A DNA stretch of 64,000 nt from Anaerolineae bacterium. Lineage in GTDB: Bacteria; Chloroflexota; Anaerolineae; CG2-30-64-16. How positions within the stretch are numbered: the first letter of the stretch is position 1; every line of letters starts with the position of its first letter. The notes below the pieces were generated by a model. It ran no database searches, had not been told where the DNA came from, and worked only from the letters and a program-made list of their open reading frames with translations. The position numbers and the translations under genes were made by a program. The DNA lies in the NCBI GenBank assembly GCA_034434235.1, contig DAOTZV010000182.1, positions 10,713-74,712 on the forward strand. Direction: 5' to 3'. This document shows positions 5,314 through 25,420 of this stretch, one piece after another.

Positions 5314-6600
5314 ATGTTGCACAAACGCTTTTGGGGCCTGGTGGCCCTGTTGACCGTCCTGTCTCTCATCGTGGGCGCCTGCGCGCCCGCCCCCACGCCC
5401 GCGCCTGCGCCGGCCGCCAAGGCCGAGCCGACCAAGGCGCCGGAAGCGCCGAAGGCGGCCGAACCGACCAAGGCCCCGGAGAAGCCGGCCTTGCAGATCC
5501 CCGATGTCGTCCAGGGCAAGTTCAACGTCGCCATGGTCTTGATCGGCCCGCACGATGACGGCGGCTGGAGCCAGGCCCACTACGAAGGCCTCGAGTACAT
5601 CAAGGCCAATGTGCCCAACGTGAATGTCGCCTACGTCGAGAACGTGCCCGAGGGCACCGACTCGGAGCAGGTGTTCCGCAGCCTGGCCCGCAAGGGCTTC
5701 AACCTGATCTTCGGCACCTCGTTCGGCTTCATGGATCCGATGGAGACGGTCGCCAACGAGTTCCCCAAGGTCATGTTCGTCCACATCAGCGGCTATAAGT
5801 CCAACGAGAAGAACTTCGGCAACCTGTTCGGCGCGATGGAAGACATGAAATACCTGGCCGGCATGATCGCCGGCGCGCGGGCCAAGAAGGACGGCAACCC
5901 CAAGCTCGGCTACATGGCCACCTTCCCCATTCCCGAAGAGCTGCGCCTGGGCAACGCCATCGCGCTCGGCATGAAGAAGACGTGCCCGGAGTGCACCATG
6001 GACGTGCGCTGGATCAACACCTGGCACGATCCGGTCATCGAGAAGCAGGCCGCCGAATCGCTATTCGATGCCGGCGCGCAGGTGGTCTTCACCGGCGCGG
6101 ATACGCCGGCCGTGGCCGATGTGGCGCAGGCCAAGGGCAAGTGGGGCGTCACCTATGACTGGGTGGGCTCCTGCAAGGTGGAGCGCTGCCTCACCGCACC
6201 GTACTGGAACTGGGGCCCCATCTATGCCGACATCACCAAGAAAGTCCAGGCCGGCACCTACAAGCCGGGGTGGCAGTATTTCGACGCGGATTCCGGCGGC
6301 CTGGGCATCTACGGCCTGATGGAAGGCCAGAAGCTGACGAAGGGCATGGAGGATCTGCCGCCCGAGGTCATCAAGGATGTCAAGGATCTGCTGGCCAAGA
6401 TGCTGAAGGGCGAGTTCACCCGCTTCGATGTCTTCGCCGGCGAGATCAAGGACAACAAGGGCAAGGTGATCGTGCCCAAGGGCGAGAAGATGCAGCAAGC
6501 CGACCTGGATCAGTTCCCGCCCGGCGCCGAGGGCCTGAAGTGCAAGTACTGCATGTACTGGTGGGCCGAGGGCATCACCGCGGAGCTGCCGAAACAATAA
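5314..6600 (+). CDS. BMP-family (basic membrane lipoprotein, Med/PnrA-like) ABC transporter substrate-binding lipoprotein, probably for purine nucleosides
   Basis: GAAGGAGGAG RBS, then a signal peptide with a LIVGAC lipobox, an Ala/Pro/Lys-rich linker, and a BMP fold (VAMVLIGPHDDGGWSQAHYEGL...). Confidence 0.85.
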   Translation: MLHKRFWGLVALLTVLSLIVGACAPAPTPAPAPAAKAEPTKAPEAPKAAEPTKAPEKPALQIPDVVQGKFNVAMVLIGPHDDGGWSQAHYEGLEYIKANVPNVNVAYVENVPEGTDSEQVFRSLARKGFNLIFGTSFGFMDPMETVANEFPKVMFVHISGYKSNEKNFGNLFGAMEDMKYLAGMIAGARAKKDGNPKLGYMATFPIPEELRLGNAIALGMKKTCPECTMDVRWINTWHDPVIEKQAAESLFDAGAQVVFTGADTPAVADVAQAKGKWGVTYDWVGSCKVERCLTAPYWNWGPIYADITKKVQAGTYKPGWQYFDADSGGLGIYGLMEGQKLTKGMEDLPPEVIKDVKDLLAKMLKGEFTRFDVFAGEIKDNKGKVIVPKGEKMQQADLDQFPPGAEGLKCKYCMYWWAEGITAELPKQ

Positions 6601-9398: not shown

Positions 9399-10363
9399 TT
9401 GACTGGATCATCGTCCTCCAGGCCGGCGTGGCCACCGGCACCGTGCTCCTCTTCGCGACCGTCGGCGAGATCCTGGCCGAGCGGTCCGGCGTCATGAACC
9501 TGGGCGTCGAGGGGATGATGCTGATCGGCGCGATGACGGCGTACAAGACGGCCGTCCTGATCGGCCAGCCGTGGCTGGGCGTCCTTTTCGCGATGCTGGC
9601 GGCCGGCGCGCTGAGCCTGCTTCATGCGCTGGTGACGATCAGCTTTCAGGCCGACCAGGTGGTGAGCGGCCTGGCGACGAACTTCATGGGGATCGGGTTG
9701 AGCCTGGTGTTGGGCGAGGGATTGAGCAAGGCCGGCACCGTGGCGTTGTTGCCTTCGTACACCGTGCCGATCCTGAGCAGCATTCCGATCATCGGGCCGA
9801 TCTTTTTCACCAATCACAGCGTGATGGTGTATGTGGGTTATTTGTTGACGCCGGCCGTCTGGTTCTACATCAATCGGACGCGGCCCGGGTTGCATCTGCG
9901 CGCAGTGGGCGAATATCCGGCTGCGGCCGATGCGCTCGGCATCAACGTCTATCGCCTGCGCTATCAGTATGTCTTCGTCGGCGGCGTATTGGCCGGACTG
10001 GCCGGCGCCACGATCAGCCTGGCGGTATCGCCCGGCTGGTTCAGCGAGCTGACCACTTCGGGCCAGGGGTGGATCGCCATCGGCCTGGTGATCTTCGCTC
10101 AGTGGGATCCGTGGCGGGCGCTCGCCGGCGCGTATATGTTCGGCGCGGTCCGCCGTCTGATCCTGGACCTGCAGGGGCCGCAGACGCTGCTCGGCCTGGC
10201 CAATCCCTTCTACTACATGCCGAAGCTGGGCTTCTTCCTCCAGATGTTGCCGTATGCCCTCGTGATCCTGATCCTTTTCATCGGTTCACGCGAGGCGATG
10301 AGAAAACGCATCGGCGCGCCGGCCGCGCTGGGCACGCCCTACGTGCGCGGGGAGCGCGGATAG
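9395..10363 (+). CDS. ABC transporter permease (BMP-type)
   Basis: Second permease of the operon, hydrophobic throughout. Confidence 0.85.
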   Translation: MIDWIIVLQAGVATGTVLLFATVGEILAERSGVMNLGVEGMMLIGAMTAYKTAVLIGQPWLGVLFAMLAAGALSLLHALVTISFQADQVVSGLATNFMGIGLSLVLGEGLSKAGTVALLPSYTVPILSSIPIIGPIFFTNHSVMVYVGYLLTPAVWFYINRTRPGLHLRAVGEYPAAADALGINVYRLRYQYVFVGGVLAGLAGATISLAVSPGWFSELTTSGQGWIAIGLVIFAQWDPWRALAGAYMFGAVRRLILDLQGPQTLLGLANPFYYMPKLGFFLQMLPYALVILILFIGSREAMRKRIGAPAALGTPYVRGERG

Positions 10364-10382: not shown

Positions 10383-10419
10383 TATAAAACAAAACGCCCG
10401 CCCCCTCTTCAGGGGCGGG
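10383..10419 (-). terminator. Intrinsic-terminator-like GC hairpin with a U-tract on the minus strand. It may act for both convergent genes.
   Basis: GCCCGCCCC-TCTTCA-GGGGCGGGC, preceded on the plus strand by TAAAACAAAAC (read as GTTTTGTTTTA on the minus strand). It lies between the permease end (10363) and the end of the minus-strand repeat protein (10501). Confidence 0.5.
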
Positions 10420-10500
10420 CCACGATCGGCCTGAAATCACAGCCAACATGTTCGGCCCTCGTCGGTCGAGCCGCGCCGGGATGATGTGCCGCTGTGCGCC

Positions 10501-11295
10501 TCAATCACCGTGATAGACGAGCGTGATGCCGAGTTCCTGGCAGCGTTCCCGCACCTCATCGCCGATGCTCATGGCGATCATGATGCCCTCCACCTTGACG
10601 CCCGGATTCAACGCCTGTACGAAGGCCACTTTCTCGTGTAGCCGATCTATATCTTCCCACTCGCAGTAACTTTTCACTTCAAAGACCGAGATCTGACCAT
10701 CCTGAGCAAGGATATCTATCTCGAATCGCCGTTGCCCCGGGAGGCCAACCACGCCCTTTTCGTCCACCATTCTCTGGCGCAGCCGAAGCTGATCGGGCTT
10801 GATGTCGGGCCGACGCAAGGCGACCCGCAACGCGCCGGCCACCACATCCTCCAGCCGGCGGCCCGAACGCCGCTGCAACCCTCCGACAACGCCCTCAACC
10901 CAATCGCGCAGATCGCTCATTTCTTGTTGCAGGCCTTCGAGGCGCCGATCCACCTCTTCGAAGCGCTGATCTACATGCTCGAAGCGCCGATCAATCTCTT
11001 CGAAGCGCCGGTCGATCTGCTCGAAGCGCCGATCAATCTCTTCGAAGCGCCGGTCGATCTGCTCGAAGCGTTGGTCGATCTGCTCGAAGCGTTGATCTGT
11101 CTTGGCGCTGAAGCGTCTGAATTCGCCGCGAAACTCCCGCATTTCCGCAAGGATCGCCGCCGTCTCTTCTTTGGTGGTGAAAACCCGCAGAAAAGCACGG
11201 AACGCGCGACGTTCCAGATCGGGGTCGCGTTCGATCATCTCCGGAAGCTGCTCTTCCAGAATATGCAAGACTTCTTCATCCTTCAATTTCAACAT
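10501..11295 (-). CDS. Coiled-coil protein: eight tandem heptad repeats (D-x-R-F-E-x-I) in the middle and a C-terminal PD-(D/E)xK-nuclease-like core (EIDIL...VFEVK)
   Basis: Translation reads DQRFEQI DQRFEQI DRRFEEI DRRFEQI DRRFEEI DRRFEHV DQRFEEV DRRLEGL. C-terminal RRFEIDILAQDGQISVFEVKSY fits the D...ExK nuclease motif. A hairpin plus T-tract terminator follows downstream. Confidence 0.6.
   Translation of the reverse strand: MLKLKDEEVLHILEEQLPEMIERDPDLERRAFRAFLRVFTTKEETAAILAEMREFRGEFRRFSAKTDQRFEQIDQRFEQIDRRFEEIDRRFEQIDRRFEEIDRRFEHVDQRFEEVDRRLEGLQQEMSDLRDWVEGVVGGLQRRSGRRLEDVVAGALRVALRRPDIKPDQLRLRQRMVDEKGVVGLPGQRRFEIDILAQDGQISVFEVKSYCEWEDIDRLHEKVAFVQALNPGVKVEGIMIAMSIGDEVRERCQELGITLVYHGD
10936..11096. 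repeat. Near-perfect 21-nt tandem repeat (~8 units, including an exact 42-bp duplication) inside the CDS above
   Basis: GAAGCGCCGATCAATCTCTTC and GAAGCGCCGGTCGATCTGCTC alternate. 10981-11022 is identical to 11023-11064. Confidence 0.85.
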
Positions 11296-11537
11296 CGTCT
11301 ACCTGCCGATCAATCGTATCGCAACCGCTCCGGTTCATGGGTCTCAACCAGCTTGGCTATTGCAAAGTATAACATAAAGCCCCCCTGCTTGCAAGTGCTT
11401 TTTTGCGTCTGGCCGGGTGCTCCAGCGCCGGAGCGGCCGGCCAGCGTTCCTGGCCGGCTTTCAGCCTGCTTCAGGGAACACCGAACGGTAGCACGGACAT
11501 GTCATGGCCGTGCGCTGCTGCTTGAAAGCCGATCGGG

Positions 11538-12131
11538 TCAAGGCTTTGCCAGCCGGCCGTCCAGGCCCAGCTCGGCCGCGATCCCCTTCATCGCCTCCAG
11601 CACGATCCCGACGTGCTCCCAGATGTCCAGGCCCAGCTCCCGCGCGCCCTGTTCGATGTCGGCCCGATTGACCGCGGCCGCGAAGAGCTTGTCCTTCCAT
11701 TTCTTTTTGACCGAGCTGACCTCGACATCGCGGATGTCCTTGCTCGGCCGGACATAGGCCACGGCCATGATCAACCCGGTTAGTTCGTCGGAGGCGTAGA
11801 GGGCCGAATCCATGCGGGTCGTGCGCGGCACGCCCAGGAAAGGCGCGTGCCCCTCTACCGCGTGGATCAGCTCGGCCGGCAATCCCATCTCGCGGAACAG
11901 CCGCAGCGCGGTGCGCGGGTGGCCGTTCACCGGATCGTCCATGTCGGGATACCGCTCGAAGTCCAGGTCGTGGATGAGGCCGGTAATGCCCCACAGCTCC
12001 TCATCCTCGCCGAAGCGCCGTGCATAGCCGCGCATGGCCGCTTCGACTGCCAGCACATGCTTGCGTAAGCTTTCGCTCTGAATCCACTCGCAAACCAAAT
12101 CCCAGGCTTGTTCACGCGTTAATAGTGTCAT
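11538..12131 (-). CDS. HD-domain metal-dependent phosphohydrolase
   Basis: H...HD motif (GLIHDLDFERY), size ~197 aa, GGGAG RBS. Confidence 0.75.
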   Translation of the reverse strand: MTLLTREQAWDLVCEWIQSESLRKHVLAVEAAMRGYARRFGEDEELWGITGLIHDLDFERYPDMDDPVNGHPRTALRLFREMGLPAELIHAVEGHAPFLGVPRTTRMDSALYASDELTGLIMAVAYVRPSKDIRDVEVSSVKKKWKDKLFAAAVNRADIEQGARELGLDIWEHVGIVLEAMKGIAAELGLDGRLAKP

Positions 12132-13211: not shown

Positions 13212-13261
13212 CCATCCACCGTAAGACGAAATTCAAATTCATTTCGTCTTACGGTGGATGG
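13212..13261. terminator. Perfect 21-bp-stem hairpin between the arabinofuranosidase 3' end and the rph start
   Basis: CCATCCACCGTAAGACGAAAT-tcaaattc-ATTTCGTCTTACGGTGGATGG. No obvious U-tract follows. Confidence 0.45.
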
Positions 13262-13265
13262 CACG

Positions 13266-24004: not shown

Positions 24005-25420
24005 ATGACCGATTTCGACCTCCTGCGCGCCACCGAATTCAGCCGCCTGGATGCGACCGGCCAGATCTACCTGGACTACACCGGCGGCGGCCTCTACGCC
24101 GAAAGCCAGCTTCGCCAACACCTCGATCTCCTCAGGGAGAACGTCTTCGGCAACCCGCATTCGCACAATCCCACCTCGCAGGCGATGACCTGCCTGGTGG
24201 ATCAGGCGCGGGCCTATGTGCTGGAGTTCTTCAACGCGCCCCCCGGCGAATACGCGGTGATCTTCACGCCGAACGCTTCGGGCGCGCTCAAGCTGGTCGG
24301 CGAGGCGTATCCGTTCGGCCCCGGCGATCACTACCTGCTCACCTTCGACAACCACAATTCGGTCAACGGCATCCGCGAGTTCGCGCGCGCCAAAGGCGCG
24401 CAGTTCACCTATCTGCCGATCGGCGGGCCGGAGCTGCGCGTGGATCCGGCGACGCTGGACGAATATCTGGCGTTGGCCGCGCCGGGCCGCCACAACCTGT
24501 TCGCGTTTCCGGCGCAATCCAACTTCACCGGCGTCCAGCACCCGTTGGAGATGATCGGCCGGGCGCACGAGCGGGGATGGGACGTGTTGGTGGACGCCGC
24601 GGCCTTCGCGCCGACCAACCGGCTCGACCTGGCCCGCTGGCGGCCCGATTTCGTGCCGCTTTCGTTTTACAAGATGTTCGGCTATCCGACCGGCATCGGG
24701 TGTCTGCTGGCGCGGCGGGAGGCGCTGGCGAAGCTGCGCCGGCCCTGGTACGCGGGCGGCACGATCACCATTTCGTCGGTGCAGGGGGATGGCCACTACC
24801 TGGCGCCGGGCGAAGCCGGCTTCGAGGACGGCACGATCAACTACCTGAACATTCCGGCCGTGGAGATCGGCCTGCGCTTTCTGGCCGGCGTGGGCATGGA
24901 GGCCATCCACGAGCACGTCATGGCCTTGACCGGCCGGCTCCTCGAGCAGCTCGTCGCGCTGCGCCATAGCAATGGCCGGCCGCTGGTCAAGATCCACGGC
25001 CCGACCGACCTGAACGCCCGCGGGGGCACGGTGACCATGACCTTCTACGACCGGGAGGGCCGGGCGATAGACGATCAACGCGTCGAGCAGCTCGCCAACC
25101 GCCAGCGGATCTCCGTGCGCACCGGTTGCTTCTGCAACCCGGGCGCGGGCGAAGTGGCCCACGGCCTGACGGCCGAGATCATGCGGACGTTCTTCGGCCG
25201 GCCGGTGGCGCCGTCGTTCCAGGAGTTGCGCCGGGAGATGCGCGAGCGCTTCGGCCGCGACATCAGCGCGGTGCGCGTGTCGGTGGGCCTTGCTTCCAAC
25301 CGCGGGGACGTGGACGCGTTCATTCGCTTCGCGGCCGGCTTTCTAGACCGCACGGCCGACGAGATCGGCGAGATGGAGCCGGGCCCCGCGCCCTGCTCCA
25401 CCGACCGCGACGCGGCATGA
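24005..25420 (+). CDS. Class V aminotransferase-fold PLP enzyme resembling the N-terminal domain of molybdenum-cofactor sulfurase (MOCOS/ABA3) or a NifS-like desulfurase
   Basis: IYLDYTGGGLYAESQL, FTGVQHP, SFYKMFGYPTGIGCL (PLP-lysine region), C-terminal TGCFCNPGAG. Confidence 0.65.
   Translation: MTDFDLLRATEFSRLDATGQIYLDYTGGGLYAESQLRQHLDLLRENVFGNPHSHNPTSQAMTCLVDQARAYVLEFFNAPPGEYAVIFTPNASGALKLVGEAYPFGPGDHYLLTFDNHNSVNGIREFARAKGAQFTYLPIGGPELRVDPATLDEYLALAAPGRHNLFAFPAQSNFTGVQHPLEMIGRAHERGWDVLVDAAAFAPTNRLDLARWRPDFVPLSFYKMFGYPTGIGCLLARREALAKLRRPWYAGGTITISSVQGDGHYLAPGEAGFEDGTINYLNIPAVEIGLRFLAGVGMEAIHEHVMALTGRLLEQLVALRHSNGRPLVKIHGPTDLNARGGTVTMTFYDREGRAIDDQRVEQLANRQRISVRTGCFCNPGAGEVAHGLTAEIMRTFFGRPVAPSFQELRREMRERFGRDISAVRVSVGLASNRGDVDAFIRFAAGFLDRTADEIGEMEPGPAPCSTDRDAA

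Follow-up and report, generated by a model that had tools for sequence, protein, structure and literature searches.

A stalked PD-(D/E)XK nuclease-like protein of Anaerolineae whose coiled-coil array varies by whole heptads among strains

Small proteins that join a coiled coil to a PD-(D/E)XK domain have been catalogued under two family names, DUF1626 (COG5493; now PDDEXK_10, PF07788) and DUF3782 (PF12644). Knizewski et al. (2007) placed DUF1626 in the PD-(D/E)XK superfamily, with an N-terminal coiled coil in most members and with hosts that at the time included Chloroflexus and Roseiflexus; in many PF07788 members, T, A or S replaces the lysine of the E-x-K motif and a basic patch lies in the next helix (PMC1913061). 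A 2012 survey gave the function of DUF1626 as unknown, described its distribution as patchy and inferred multiple horizontal gene transfer (HGT) events (PMC3424549), and archaeal DUF1626 genes occur in operons with HEPN/MNT modules (PMC3710099). Hartmann et al. (2016) described a "family of prokaryotic endonucleases" whose N-terminal coiled-coil stalks are grouped as DUF3782, with beta-layer nonads in the crenarchaeal proteins, plain heptads in the bacterial ones, and related bacterial proteins that have no nuclease (PMC4786415). Our full-text search of the literature on DUF3782, DUF1626/PF07788 and COG5493 found neither a published function nor any repeat-number variation. Here we analyse a gene of this type in a 64-kb stretch of an Anaerolineae bacterium genome (GCA_034434235.1, contig DAOTZV010000182.1, positions 10,713–74,712), and we refer to this whole stretch as the window.

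The gene is complete, occupies window positions 10501–11295 on the minus strand, and encodes 264 aa plus a stop codon in the list of open reading frames (ORFs). Its product has the order head, neck, heptad stalk, linker and PD-(D/E)XK domain, and a database search found an identical protein (P0001) in public data. Judged from its sequence, this protein is a divergent, sub-threshold member of a catalogued family of unknown function and not a new kind of system, so the description "uncharacterised", given to such proteins in an initial annotation of this DNA, agrees with the literature (PMC3424549). What goes beyond the literature searched is the recurrent, strain-level variation of stalk length in heptad steps and, as a second and weaker point, a likeness of the head and neck to those of trimeric stalk proteins.

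Heptad array and its variation among strains

The polymorphic part of the gene encodes residues 67–122 (10930–11097, minus strand) and consists of eight D-x-R-F/L-E-x-I/V/L units, which follow one another without interruption and in register: DQRFEQI, DQRFEQI, DRRFEEI, DRRFEQI, DRRFEEI, DRRFEHV, DQRFEEV and DRRLEGL. Tandem Repeats Finder places the array at 10937–11091 with a period of 21 nt (7.4 copies, 80% matches) and also reports it with a period of 42 nt (3.7 copies, 87% matches). A string identity check confirms an exact 42-bp tandem duplication at 10981–11064, i.e., positions 10981–11022 are the same as positions 11023–11064. The initial annotation had noted both the eight near-identical heptads and the exact duplication, and the translation, the repeat finder and the string comparison all agree with it. 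The 64-kb window contains no second copy of the gene or of the 21-nt unit; a loose scan for the unit with four mismatches allowed gave one isolated match, at 25073.

It had also been predicted that repeat number would be variable and suggested that orthologous loci be compared for repeat-length polymorphism. We carried out that comparison with contigs from three separate metagenome assemblies (JGI 3300003891, JGI 3300060601 and ENA ERZ27296003) and found six, eight or nine heptads among near-identical strains. The window and the three assemblies have a common gene order (Bmp lipoprotein, ABC ATPase, two permeases, nuclease gene, HD hydrolase, 80-aa ORF, RNase PH and arabinofuranosidase), and the four sequences are 99.8–100% identical across 12.8 kb, with 5–27 mismatches per pair. 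Within these 12.8 kb, the array is the site of the only large indel, and the variant proteins P0002 (271 aa) and P0003 (250 aa) differ from the window protein by whole heptads only. The six-heptad allele (strain L082) is without one copy of the 42-bp duplication (−42 nt). The nine-heptad allele has one additional 21-nt unit (+21 nt), which is a chimera of two adjacent units (GACCGGCGCTTCGA followed by GCAGATC) and thus a novel unit, GACCGGCGCTTCGAGCAGATC, not a simple copy.

The same kind of variation is found beyond the strains of the window. When the heptads were stripped from all retrieved proteins, seven groups (the window's and six more) had identical flanks and different heptad numbers, giving length series such as 279/286/314 aa, 271/243 aa and 236/229/222 aa. 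In a separate clade of 67 proteins, some of them on contigs of 4.9–10 Mb, lengths are exactly 211, 218, 225 or 232 aa, and heptad-sized indels occur at several positions in the stalk. The indels are whole heptads even where the units differ in sequence, and across the family the number of heptads per protein ranges from approximately 2 to 16 (strict pattern count).

Within an array, the 21-nt units are 79–95% identical in all but two of twelve homologous loci. The exceptions are L004, with 61–67% identity at the 21-nt period and 86% at 42 nt, and L086, which has no array by Tandem Repeats Finder. Codon choice is lineage-specific (CGCTTC versus CGCTTT), and lineage-specific codons combined with homogeneity inside each array are the signature of concerted evolution. 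The array is therefore homogenised within each lineage at the nucleotide level, by slippage or unequal recombination.

Could the differences in repeat number be an assembly artefact, i.e., could the gene have a single fixed form that short-read assembly has collapsed or expanded? Every sequence used here derives from a metagenome assembly, and the −42-nt allele, being the exact loss of one copy of a perfect duplication, looks as a collapse would look. However, the novel chimeric unit of the nine-heptad allele is expected from unequal recombination or slippage and not from assembly collapse. The array is only approximately 160 nt long, and the contig ids name a final k-mer (k141) that exceeds the perfect repeat (84 nt) in length. 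The eight-heptad form was recovered twice independently, in the window and in L083, and the same phenomenon appears across seven lineages and several assemblers, including the clade on 4.9–10 Mb contigs, whose heptads are too divergent to collapse. We consider an artefact very improbable.

A different question is whether the copy number is selected. The hypermutable array could be an adaptive ruler or contingency locus, in which stalk length sets the distance between head and nuclease, so that gain or loss of a heptad would shift the cut site or the target, or allow escape from an inhibitor. Consistent with this, no other large polymorphism is found in 12.8 kb of almost identical DNA, copy-number change recurs in at least seven lineages, all of the indels are whole heptads (non-identical units included), arrays are near-perfect in many lineages, and the range across the family is wide (approximately 2–16 heptads). 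However, neutral slippage of a 21-nt repeat also produces whole-unit changes and homogenisation, there is no evidence of recognition by the head, and there is no partner gene or methyltransferase. One heptad (approximately 1 nm, or approximately 3 bp) is also not an obvious unit of DNA geometry, and we give selection on copy number only a small chance of being right.

Nuclease domain and family placement

Searches with the full protein (Pfam, NCBIfam and PDB) were swamped by coiled-coil matches, and we therefore built an alignment of the C-terminal domain and searched with this part separately. Full-length matches to Phage_GPO, EzrA, SMC, haemagglutinin HA2 and others were discounted as coiled-coil noise, and the relevant full-length Pfam matches, to PDDEXK_10 (E 0.011) and NucS_C (E 0.012), were sub-threshold only. 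The C-terminal alignment (A1) covers 144 residues and 49 sequences, clustered to less than 75% mutual identity. With residues numbered as in the full protein, G145, E149, D194 and E206 are invariant, and G138, D178, G181, E192, K208 and K222 are at least 90% conserved, which for K208 holds in both the 49-sequence alignment and one of 38 sequences. Read from these columns, the pattern is that of a classical PD-(D/E)XK domain, in which helix 1 carries the Glu, strand 2 the Asp and strand 3 the E-x-K motif.

The predicted nuclease domain spans residues 145–262 (10510–10863, minus strand). Its catalytic candidates are E149 (10849–10851), D194 (10714–10716), E206 (10678–10680) and K208 (10672–10674), the last three within an EID...FEVK motif at residues 192–194 and 205–208. 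This domain is restriction-endonuclease-like and most similar to the catalytic domain of NucS/EndoMS. The initial annotation had proposed a PD-(D/E)xK-like C-terminus of approximately 70 aa. Its fold and motif hold, the similarity to PD-(D/E)xK folds being present in a predicted model, but its size does not: the domain is approximately 118 aa long because an N-terminal helix with a conserved Glu belongs to it. Given the conservation of the catalytic residues, the protein is probably a catalytically competent, metal-dependent nuclease.

Against PDDEXK_10, the window protein scores 16.1 bits over its full length and 17.6 bits as a C-terminal fragment (gathering score 21.2), with a match that spans profile positions 3–73 of 74. 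Against DUF3782 (gathering score 24.4 bits), window residues 102–181 gave no match at E≤1. A Pfam scan of 49 relatives found PDDEXK_10 in 26 of them (E≤0.01, best 4e-12) and DUF3782 and NucS_C in seven each. For example, P0082, P0086, P0098 and P0103 have DUF3782, at 35–61 bits, directly N-terminal of PDDEXK_10, and in such above-threshold relatives DUF3782 (78 positions) covers the last heptads, the Gly-rich linker and catalytic helix 1.

Comparison of profiles gave a clearer answer. An hhalign alignment of the window clade (A3, 22 sequences) with 13 proteins that match both PF07788 and PF12644 (A2) had a probability of 99.2% and an E of 2.2e-19 over 128 columns. The window protein is therefore homologous to the DUF3782 + PDDEXK_10 proteins and belongs to a divergent clade below the curated thresholds. 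A "DUF3782-like" group had been suggested at the outset, and this alignment supports it, with the window protein itself under both Pfam gathering scores. The group is rare, since a single-sequence scan of 1.84 billion representatives returned 167 clusters (50% identity, E≤1e-3).

Like the DUF3782 + PDDEXK_10 proteins, the window protein has an N-terminal helical region, a coiled-coil stalk, a small PD-(D/E)XK domain and [DN]-x-R-F-E-x-h heptads, and its stalk is fused N-terminally to the endonuclease domain (single helix 42–133, heptads 67–122, nuclease 145–262). Unlike several Pfam-positive members in A2, which have A or S at the lysine site together with a basic helix, the window clade keeps the canonical E-x-K lysine. 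It also differs from PF07788 members by a longer insert between helix 1 and strand 1 (PDIKPDQLRLRQ).

Head, neck and stalk

The N-terminal 133 residues are all-helical in a full-length AlphaFold 2 (AF2) monomer model (predicted local distance difference test score, pLDDT, 86.3). The predicted head, residues 1–38 (11182–11295, minus strand), has helices at 6–23 and 26–39 and a near-invariant L17-P18. In A5, a profile built on the first 65 residues, P18 is invariant and both L17 and L21 reach at least 90% conservation, as P18 also does in the family alignment A4. The neck motif, F39-T-T-K-E-E44 (11164–11181, minus strand), contains a helix break in the model exactly at T40-T41, and across the family (A4) this position reads F-x-[TSR]-[KR]-[ED]-[ED]. 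The stalk is one continuous predicted helix, residues 42–133 (10897–11172, minus strand), with a pLDDT of 88–96 over residues 50–110. The linker, residues 125–144 (DLRDWVEGVVGGLQRRS; 10864–10923, minus strand), has a pLDDT below 50 in the monomer model. It is conserved in A4, where at least 90% of the sequences keep G138 and R143.

In the heptad register, F occupies position a, I or V position d, D position e and R position g. Under standard coiled-coil rules, R at g and D at e are expected to be placed for inter-helix salt bridges in a parallel bundle. Under the Harbury rules, beta-branched I or V at d would disfavour a dimer but allow a tetramer. Based on motif and a/d residue types, the stalk is probably a parallel homo-oligomer larger than a dimer. 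A trimer seems most likely because the neck (FTTKEE) resembles the beta-layer motif, which in solved structures is found in trimers, and because the beta-branched d residues disfavour dimers.

The beta-layer consensus is [aliphatic]-A-T-K-[polar]-[D/E], beta-layers occur in homotrimers, and bacterial endonuclease stalks are without internal nonads (PMC4786415). The neck motif of the window protein comes close to this consensus, and a beta-layer would take shape only in the trimer. Searching all PDB sequences with A5 gave four marginal matches. The first was Tcar0761 (5apz, E 0.7), a DUF3782-type alpha/beta coiled coil, and the fourth was 6h9l (E 1.9), a three-chain entry in which residues 15–59 (RKDEELRRALAEELIPEVLRNRELRRAILLALSREMATKEDIEAL) align with the head and neck; hhalign of A5 against this 6h9l fragment gave 70% probability (pairwise E 3.9e-5). 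A Foldseek search with the full-length model returned nuclease-domain matches only and none for the head/neck likeness to 6h9l or 5apz, and a Pfam scan of the window protein gave no match to PF07798. In MCUR1, the order is head, beta-layer neck, stalk and membrane anchor, as given in a passage of PMC6801532 that cites Adlakha 2019.

The reading we favour, and hold to be somewhat better than an even bet, is that of a solitary nuclease on a parallel coiled-coil stalk. Several metal-dependent catalytic domains would be grouped together where the stalk ends C-terminally, and the small helical head would sit at the far end, likely as a partner- or ligand-binding module, as in head–neck–stalk–anchor proteins of the MCUR1/DUF1640 type, with the nuclease taking the place of the membrane anchor, and the substrate would probably be DNA. 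The sequence encoding the stalk would act as a protein-coding minisatellite that gains and loses whole heptads. At approximately 1 nm per heptad, the stalk would measure approximately 6–9 nm among the strains compared, and its length could drift in whole heptads, since what counts is the register, which is preserved, and not the length.

Several points weigh against this reading. The window protein falls short of the PF07788 gathering score and has no DUF3782 match, and for every member of the family nuclease activity is something that we infer from conserved residues alone. The linker is conserved yet modelled at a pLDDT below 50, which limits what can be said of stalk–nuclease geometry. FTTKEE carries T where the beta-layer consensus carries A, the matches to 5apz (E 0.7) and 6h9l (E 1.9) are not significant as database matches, and the hhalign probability is just 70%. 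If GCN4-pLI is a guide, a stalk with F at a and I at d could also be tetrameric. Lastly, PD-(D/E)XK nucleases are usually dimers, so a trimer would be unusual, though NucC is one.

DxRFExI/V arrays that are 50–80% identical to the window's also occur in many short proteins without a nuclease domain (among loci L012–L080, e.g., L016, L017, L025, L041, L053, L058, L061 and L014). Their hosts include Bacillota, Actinomycetota, Bacteroidota, Patescibacteria and Pseudomonadota, and several of the proteins end in a transmembrane helix. In a Pfam scan of these heptad-only proteins, only one from Pantoea matched the CCDC90-like family PF07798, over its full length but sub-threshold (24.1 versus 33.5 bits). 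In L014 (Binatia), the array is joined to a different, D...E-x-S nuclease-like C-terminus. Judged from such sequences, heptad arrays elsewhere suggest a modular design of a stalk plus a variable C-terminal module. Two phage protein families, phrog_6701 (E 2.9e-14) and phrog_12015 (E 7e-11), match the heptad array only (residues 61–126, window 10918–11115), so phage proteins also carry stalk repeats of this kind.

Genomic setting and comparison with known systems

The gene lies between a Bmp/ABC transporter operon (plus strand, ending at 10363) and an HD-domain gene (minus strand, 11538–12131). Approximately 80 nt past its stop codon is an intrinsic-terminator-like hairpin (10420–10396, minus strand), which has a 10-bp stem with nine G-C pairs, a 5-nt loop and then GTTTTGTTTT (whole feature 10386–10420); the hairpin is also present in the centroid fold. 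The ORF list and this hairpin with its T-run bear out the earlier view of a stand-alone gene with its own terminator. A sigma-70-like promoter-like site (11366–11394, minus strand), known from its consensus match only, lies approximately 70 nt before the ATG and consists of TTGCAA, a 17-nt spacer and TG-TATACT; one such site was found versus 0.3 expected. The HD gene and the nuclease gene are separated by 243 bp, in which there is also an 18-nt inverted repeat without a spacer (11409–11444). On the coding (minus) strand, this repeat is followed by an A-run where a canonical terminator would have a T-run, and read-through or co-transcription from the HD gene is therefore possible. The window has zero matches to a LexA-type box (GAACN4GTTC), leaving SOS control without support.

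There are two further differences between these strains. In the Bmp lipoprotein gene, a 6-nt indel (GGCGCA; window 5405–5411) within GC-rich, Ala/Pro-coding sequence close to the 5' end is a second, small in-frame length polymorphism of the same 12.8 kb; L083 encodes a Bmp product of 428 aa, L081 and L082 one of 426 aa, and the window has the longer of the two alleles. A perfect 20-bp inverted repeat (CCATCCACCGTAAGACGAAA ... TTTCGTCTTACGGTGGATGG) is located between the genes for the arabinofuranosidase and RNase PH (window 13212–13262), and its loop is TGAATTTGAA in the window and L082 and TTCA in L081 and L083.

Homologues have quite different neighbours: ZnuA and CdsA-UppS-RRF-PyrH-Tsf-RpsB; a glycosyltransferase and a methyltransferase; an NHL-repeat protein and RNase II; a pyruvate formate-lyase-like protein and ROK; RNase P subunits and SecY (in an archaeon); and VWA/CoxE and ABC permeases. 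Across the seven neighbourhoods inspected, there was no conserved partner, methyltransferase, integrase or defence gene, and in the archaeal locus one transposase lies 4.5 kb from the gene. The gene is thus solitary, its neighbours are unrelated housekeeping genes in each lineage examined, and a genome can have several paralogues. For example, a 26-kb contig (ERZ27296006 k141_148136) carries two paralogues approximately 9 kb apart, each solitary between housekeeping genes: P0051 (L088 186–854, 222 aa, approximately 43% identical to the window protein) and P0017 (L084 8001–8732, 243 aa, approximately 71%). Both are Pfam-negative like the window protein, and P0051, together with P0046 and P0044, makes up a separate heptad series (222/229/236 aa). 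One metagenome-assembled genome (MAG) likewise yields two loci, L004 and L006.

None of 80 metagenome loci with HD-hydrolase relatives (up to 93% identical) has the nuclease gene downstream. In the closest of these, L093, the ABC transporter is absent too, so it represents a synteny break and not a clean empty site. The family is found in Chloroflexota, Gemmatimonadota-like bacteria, Desulfobacterales, Poribacteria, Schekmanbacteria and archaea. An orthologue in an Anaerolineae MAG (L003 6001–6733, CAKZKT010000055.1), 73% identical by tblastn, has a +1 frameshift in the head (CCCGGATCTGG versus CCCGATCTGG), leaving a 192-aa ORF that begins at an internal ATG and encodes the stalk and the nuclease. 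For this locus and others like it, the database has gene calls of 150–158 aa (P0031, P0033 and P0034), and L003 may represent a pseudogene, a head-less isoform or a sequencing error.

These observations bear on two further explanations. The protein could be a conflict-system nuclease, either a single-gene effector against phages or plasmids or a selfish nuclease. Its head would detect a trigger and set the clustered nuclease domains free, a logic comparable to that of Shedu (SduA) and of the ligand-gated nucleases Can2, Card1 and NucC. Such a role is compatible with the stalked solitary nuclease favoured above and would suit a family with a patchy distribution from Chloroflexota to archaea, multiple paralogues per genome, different neighbours in every lineage and a frameshifted orthologue (L003). 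The HGT events inferred for DUF1626 (PMC3424549) and the archaeal HEPN/MNT operons (PMC3710099) point the same way. However, PADLOC-DB gave only coiled-coil matches (JetC, LmuB, ZorA, PbeC and DruC; residues approximately 40–140) and the PHROG scan likewise, with none to the nuclease domain in either case, so we treat these as noise. None of the seven neighbourhoods has defence, integrase or phage genes, and an immunity or methylase partner is absent. We think a conflict role unlikely.

The other explanation is housekeeping repair or recombination by a NucS/Hjc-like structure-specific endonuclease, in which the coiled coil would dimerise two catalytic domains (cf. RmuC). NucS/EndoMS are indeed nearest to the catalytic domain in both structure and sequence, a meta-profile links DUF1626 to Hjc/Hje (PMC1913061), and some neighbours are housekeeping genes (RNase PH and HD hydrolase here; RRF, UMP kinase, EF-Ts and S2 in one relative). 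However, the NucS matches are restricted to the C-terminal domain, and the N-terminal DNA-binding domain of NucS is absent, its place being taken by an all-helical region. A rare (167 clusters), patchy and paralogous family is unlike a core repair gene, the 80 HD-gene loci are without it, and the window has no LexA-type box. RmuC was rejected as an identity for the protein, the Pfam match being sub-threshold (17.5 bits versus a gathering score of 26) and confined to the coiled coil (residues 71–122). A repair role seems to us quite unlikely, and the favoured reading remains a solitary nuclease on an oligomeric stalk.

Why does this locus matter? It reveals a divergent clade with a canonical E-x-K motif that escapes the Pfam thresholds, and a stalk whose length changes by whole heptads, recurrently, in 99.8–100% identical strains, so that length is either unconstrained or under diversifying selection. 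The resemblance of the N-terminus to the head and beta-layer neck of trimeric stalks suggests a modular "head-neck-stalk-X" design in which X may be a nuclease or a membrane anchor. Should activity depend on stalk length, the locus would offer a simple natural system in which to study coiled-coil rulers; should it not, the locus is a clean case of concerted evolution in a protein-coding minisatellite. There is a slim chance that the 21-nt array is a contingency locus in the full sense, with heptad gain and loss tuning a trimeric stalk and hence the reach or cut position of a sensor-coupled nuclease. Near-clonal Anaerolineae populations would then have standing diversity in a conflict or genome-maintenance enzyme, the array would be a protein-length analogue of the HsdS spacer-repeat switch, and the DUF3782/DUF1626 family would gain its first functional handle.

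The HsdS switch is the closest parallel for the array. Price and colleagues are said to have reported in 1989 that a 4-aa TAEL repeat in the coiled-coil spacer of type IC HsdS switches EcoR124 from recognition of an N6 spacer to that of an N7 spacer when present in three copies instead of two. Like type IC HsdS (EcoR124/EcoR124-3), the window gene has a short in-frame tandem repeat in a coiled-coil spacer, with a copy number changed by unequal recombination. The two proteins are not homologous, however: in HsdS the repeat reportedly spaces two DNA-recognition domains with proven effect, whereas here no recognition domain is known.

For the protein as a whole, each known system shares a different part. 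NucS/EndoMS (PF01939; PDB 2vld and 5gke) has a matching C-terminal catalytic domain, but its N-terminal DNA-binding/dimerisation domain is replaced here by a coiled coil, and at 14–19% sequence identity the window protein is not a NucS orthologue. RmuC (PF02646) also has a long N-terminal coiled coil before a restriction-endonuclease-like domain, but the window protein is without its membrane anchor, is much smaller and belongs to a different nuclease subfamily; a similarity to JetA was rejected as a coiled-coil artefact. MCUR1/CCDC90B (DUF1640/CCDC90-like) and Tcar0761 may share with it a small helical head and an x-[AT]-T-K-[polar]-[DE] neck at the start of the stalk, by matches that are statistically weak, and the bacterial members of this head–neck–stalk group also have DxRFExh heptads; a link to DUF3782 is pointed out in PMC4786415. 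Unlike the MCUR1/DUF1640 type, however, the window protein ends in a predicted soluble nuclease domain instead of a transmembrane anchor.

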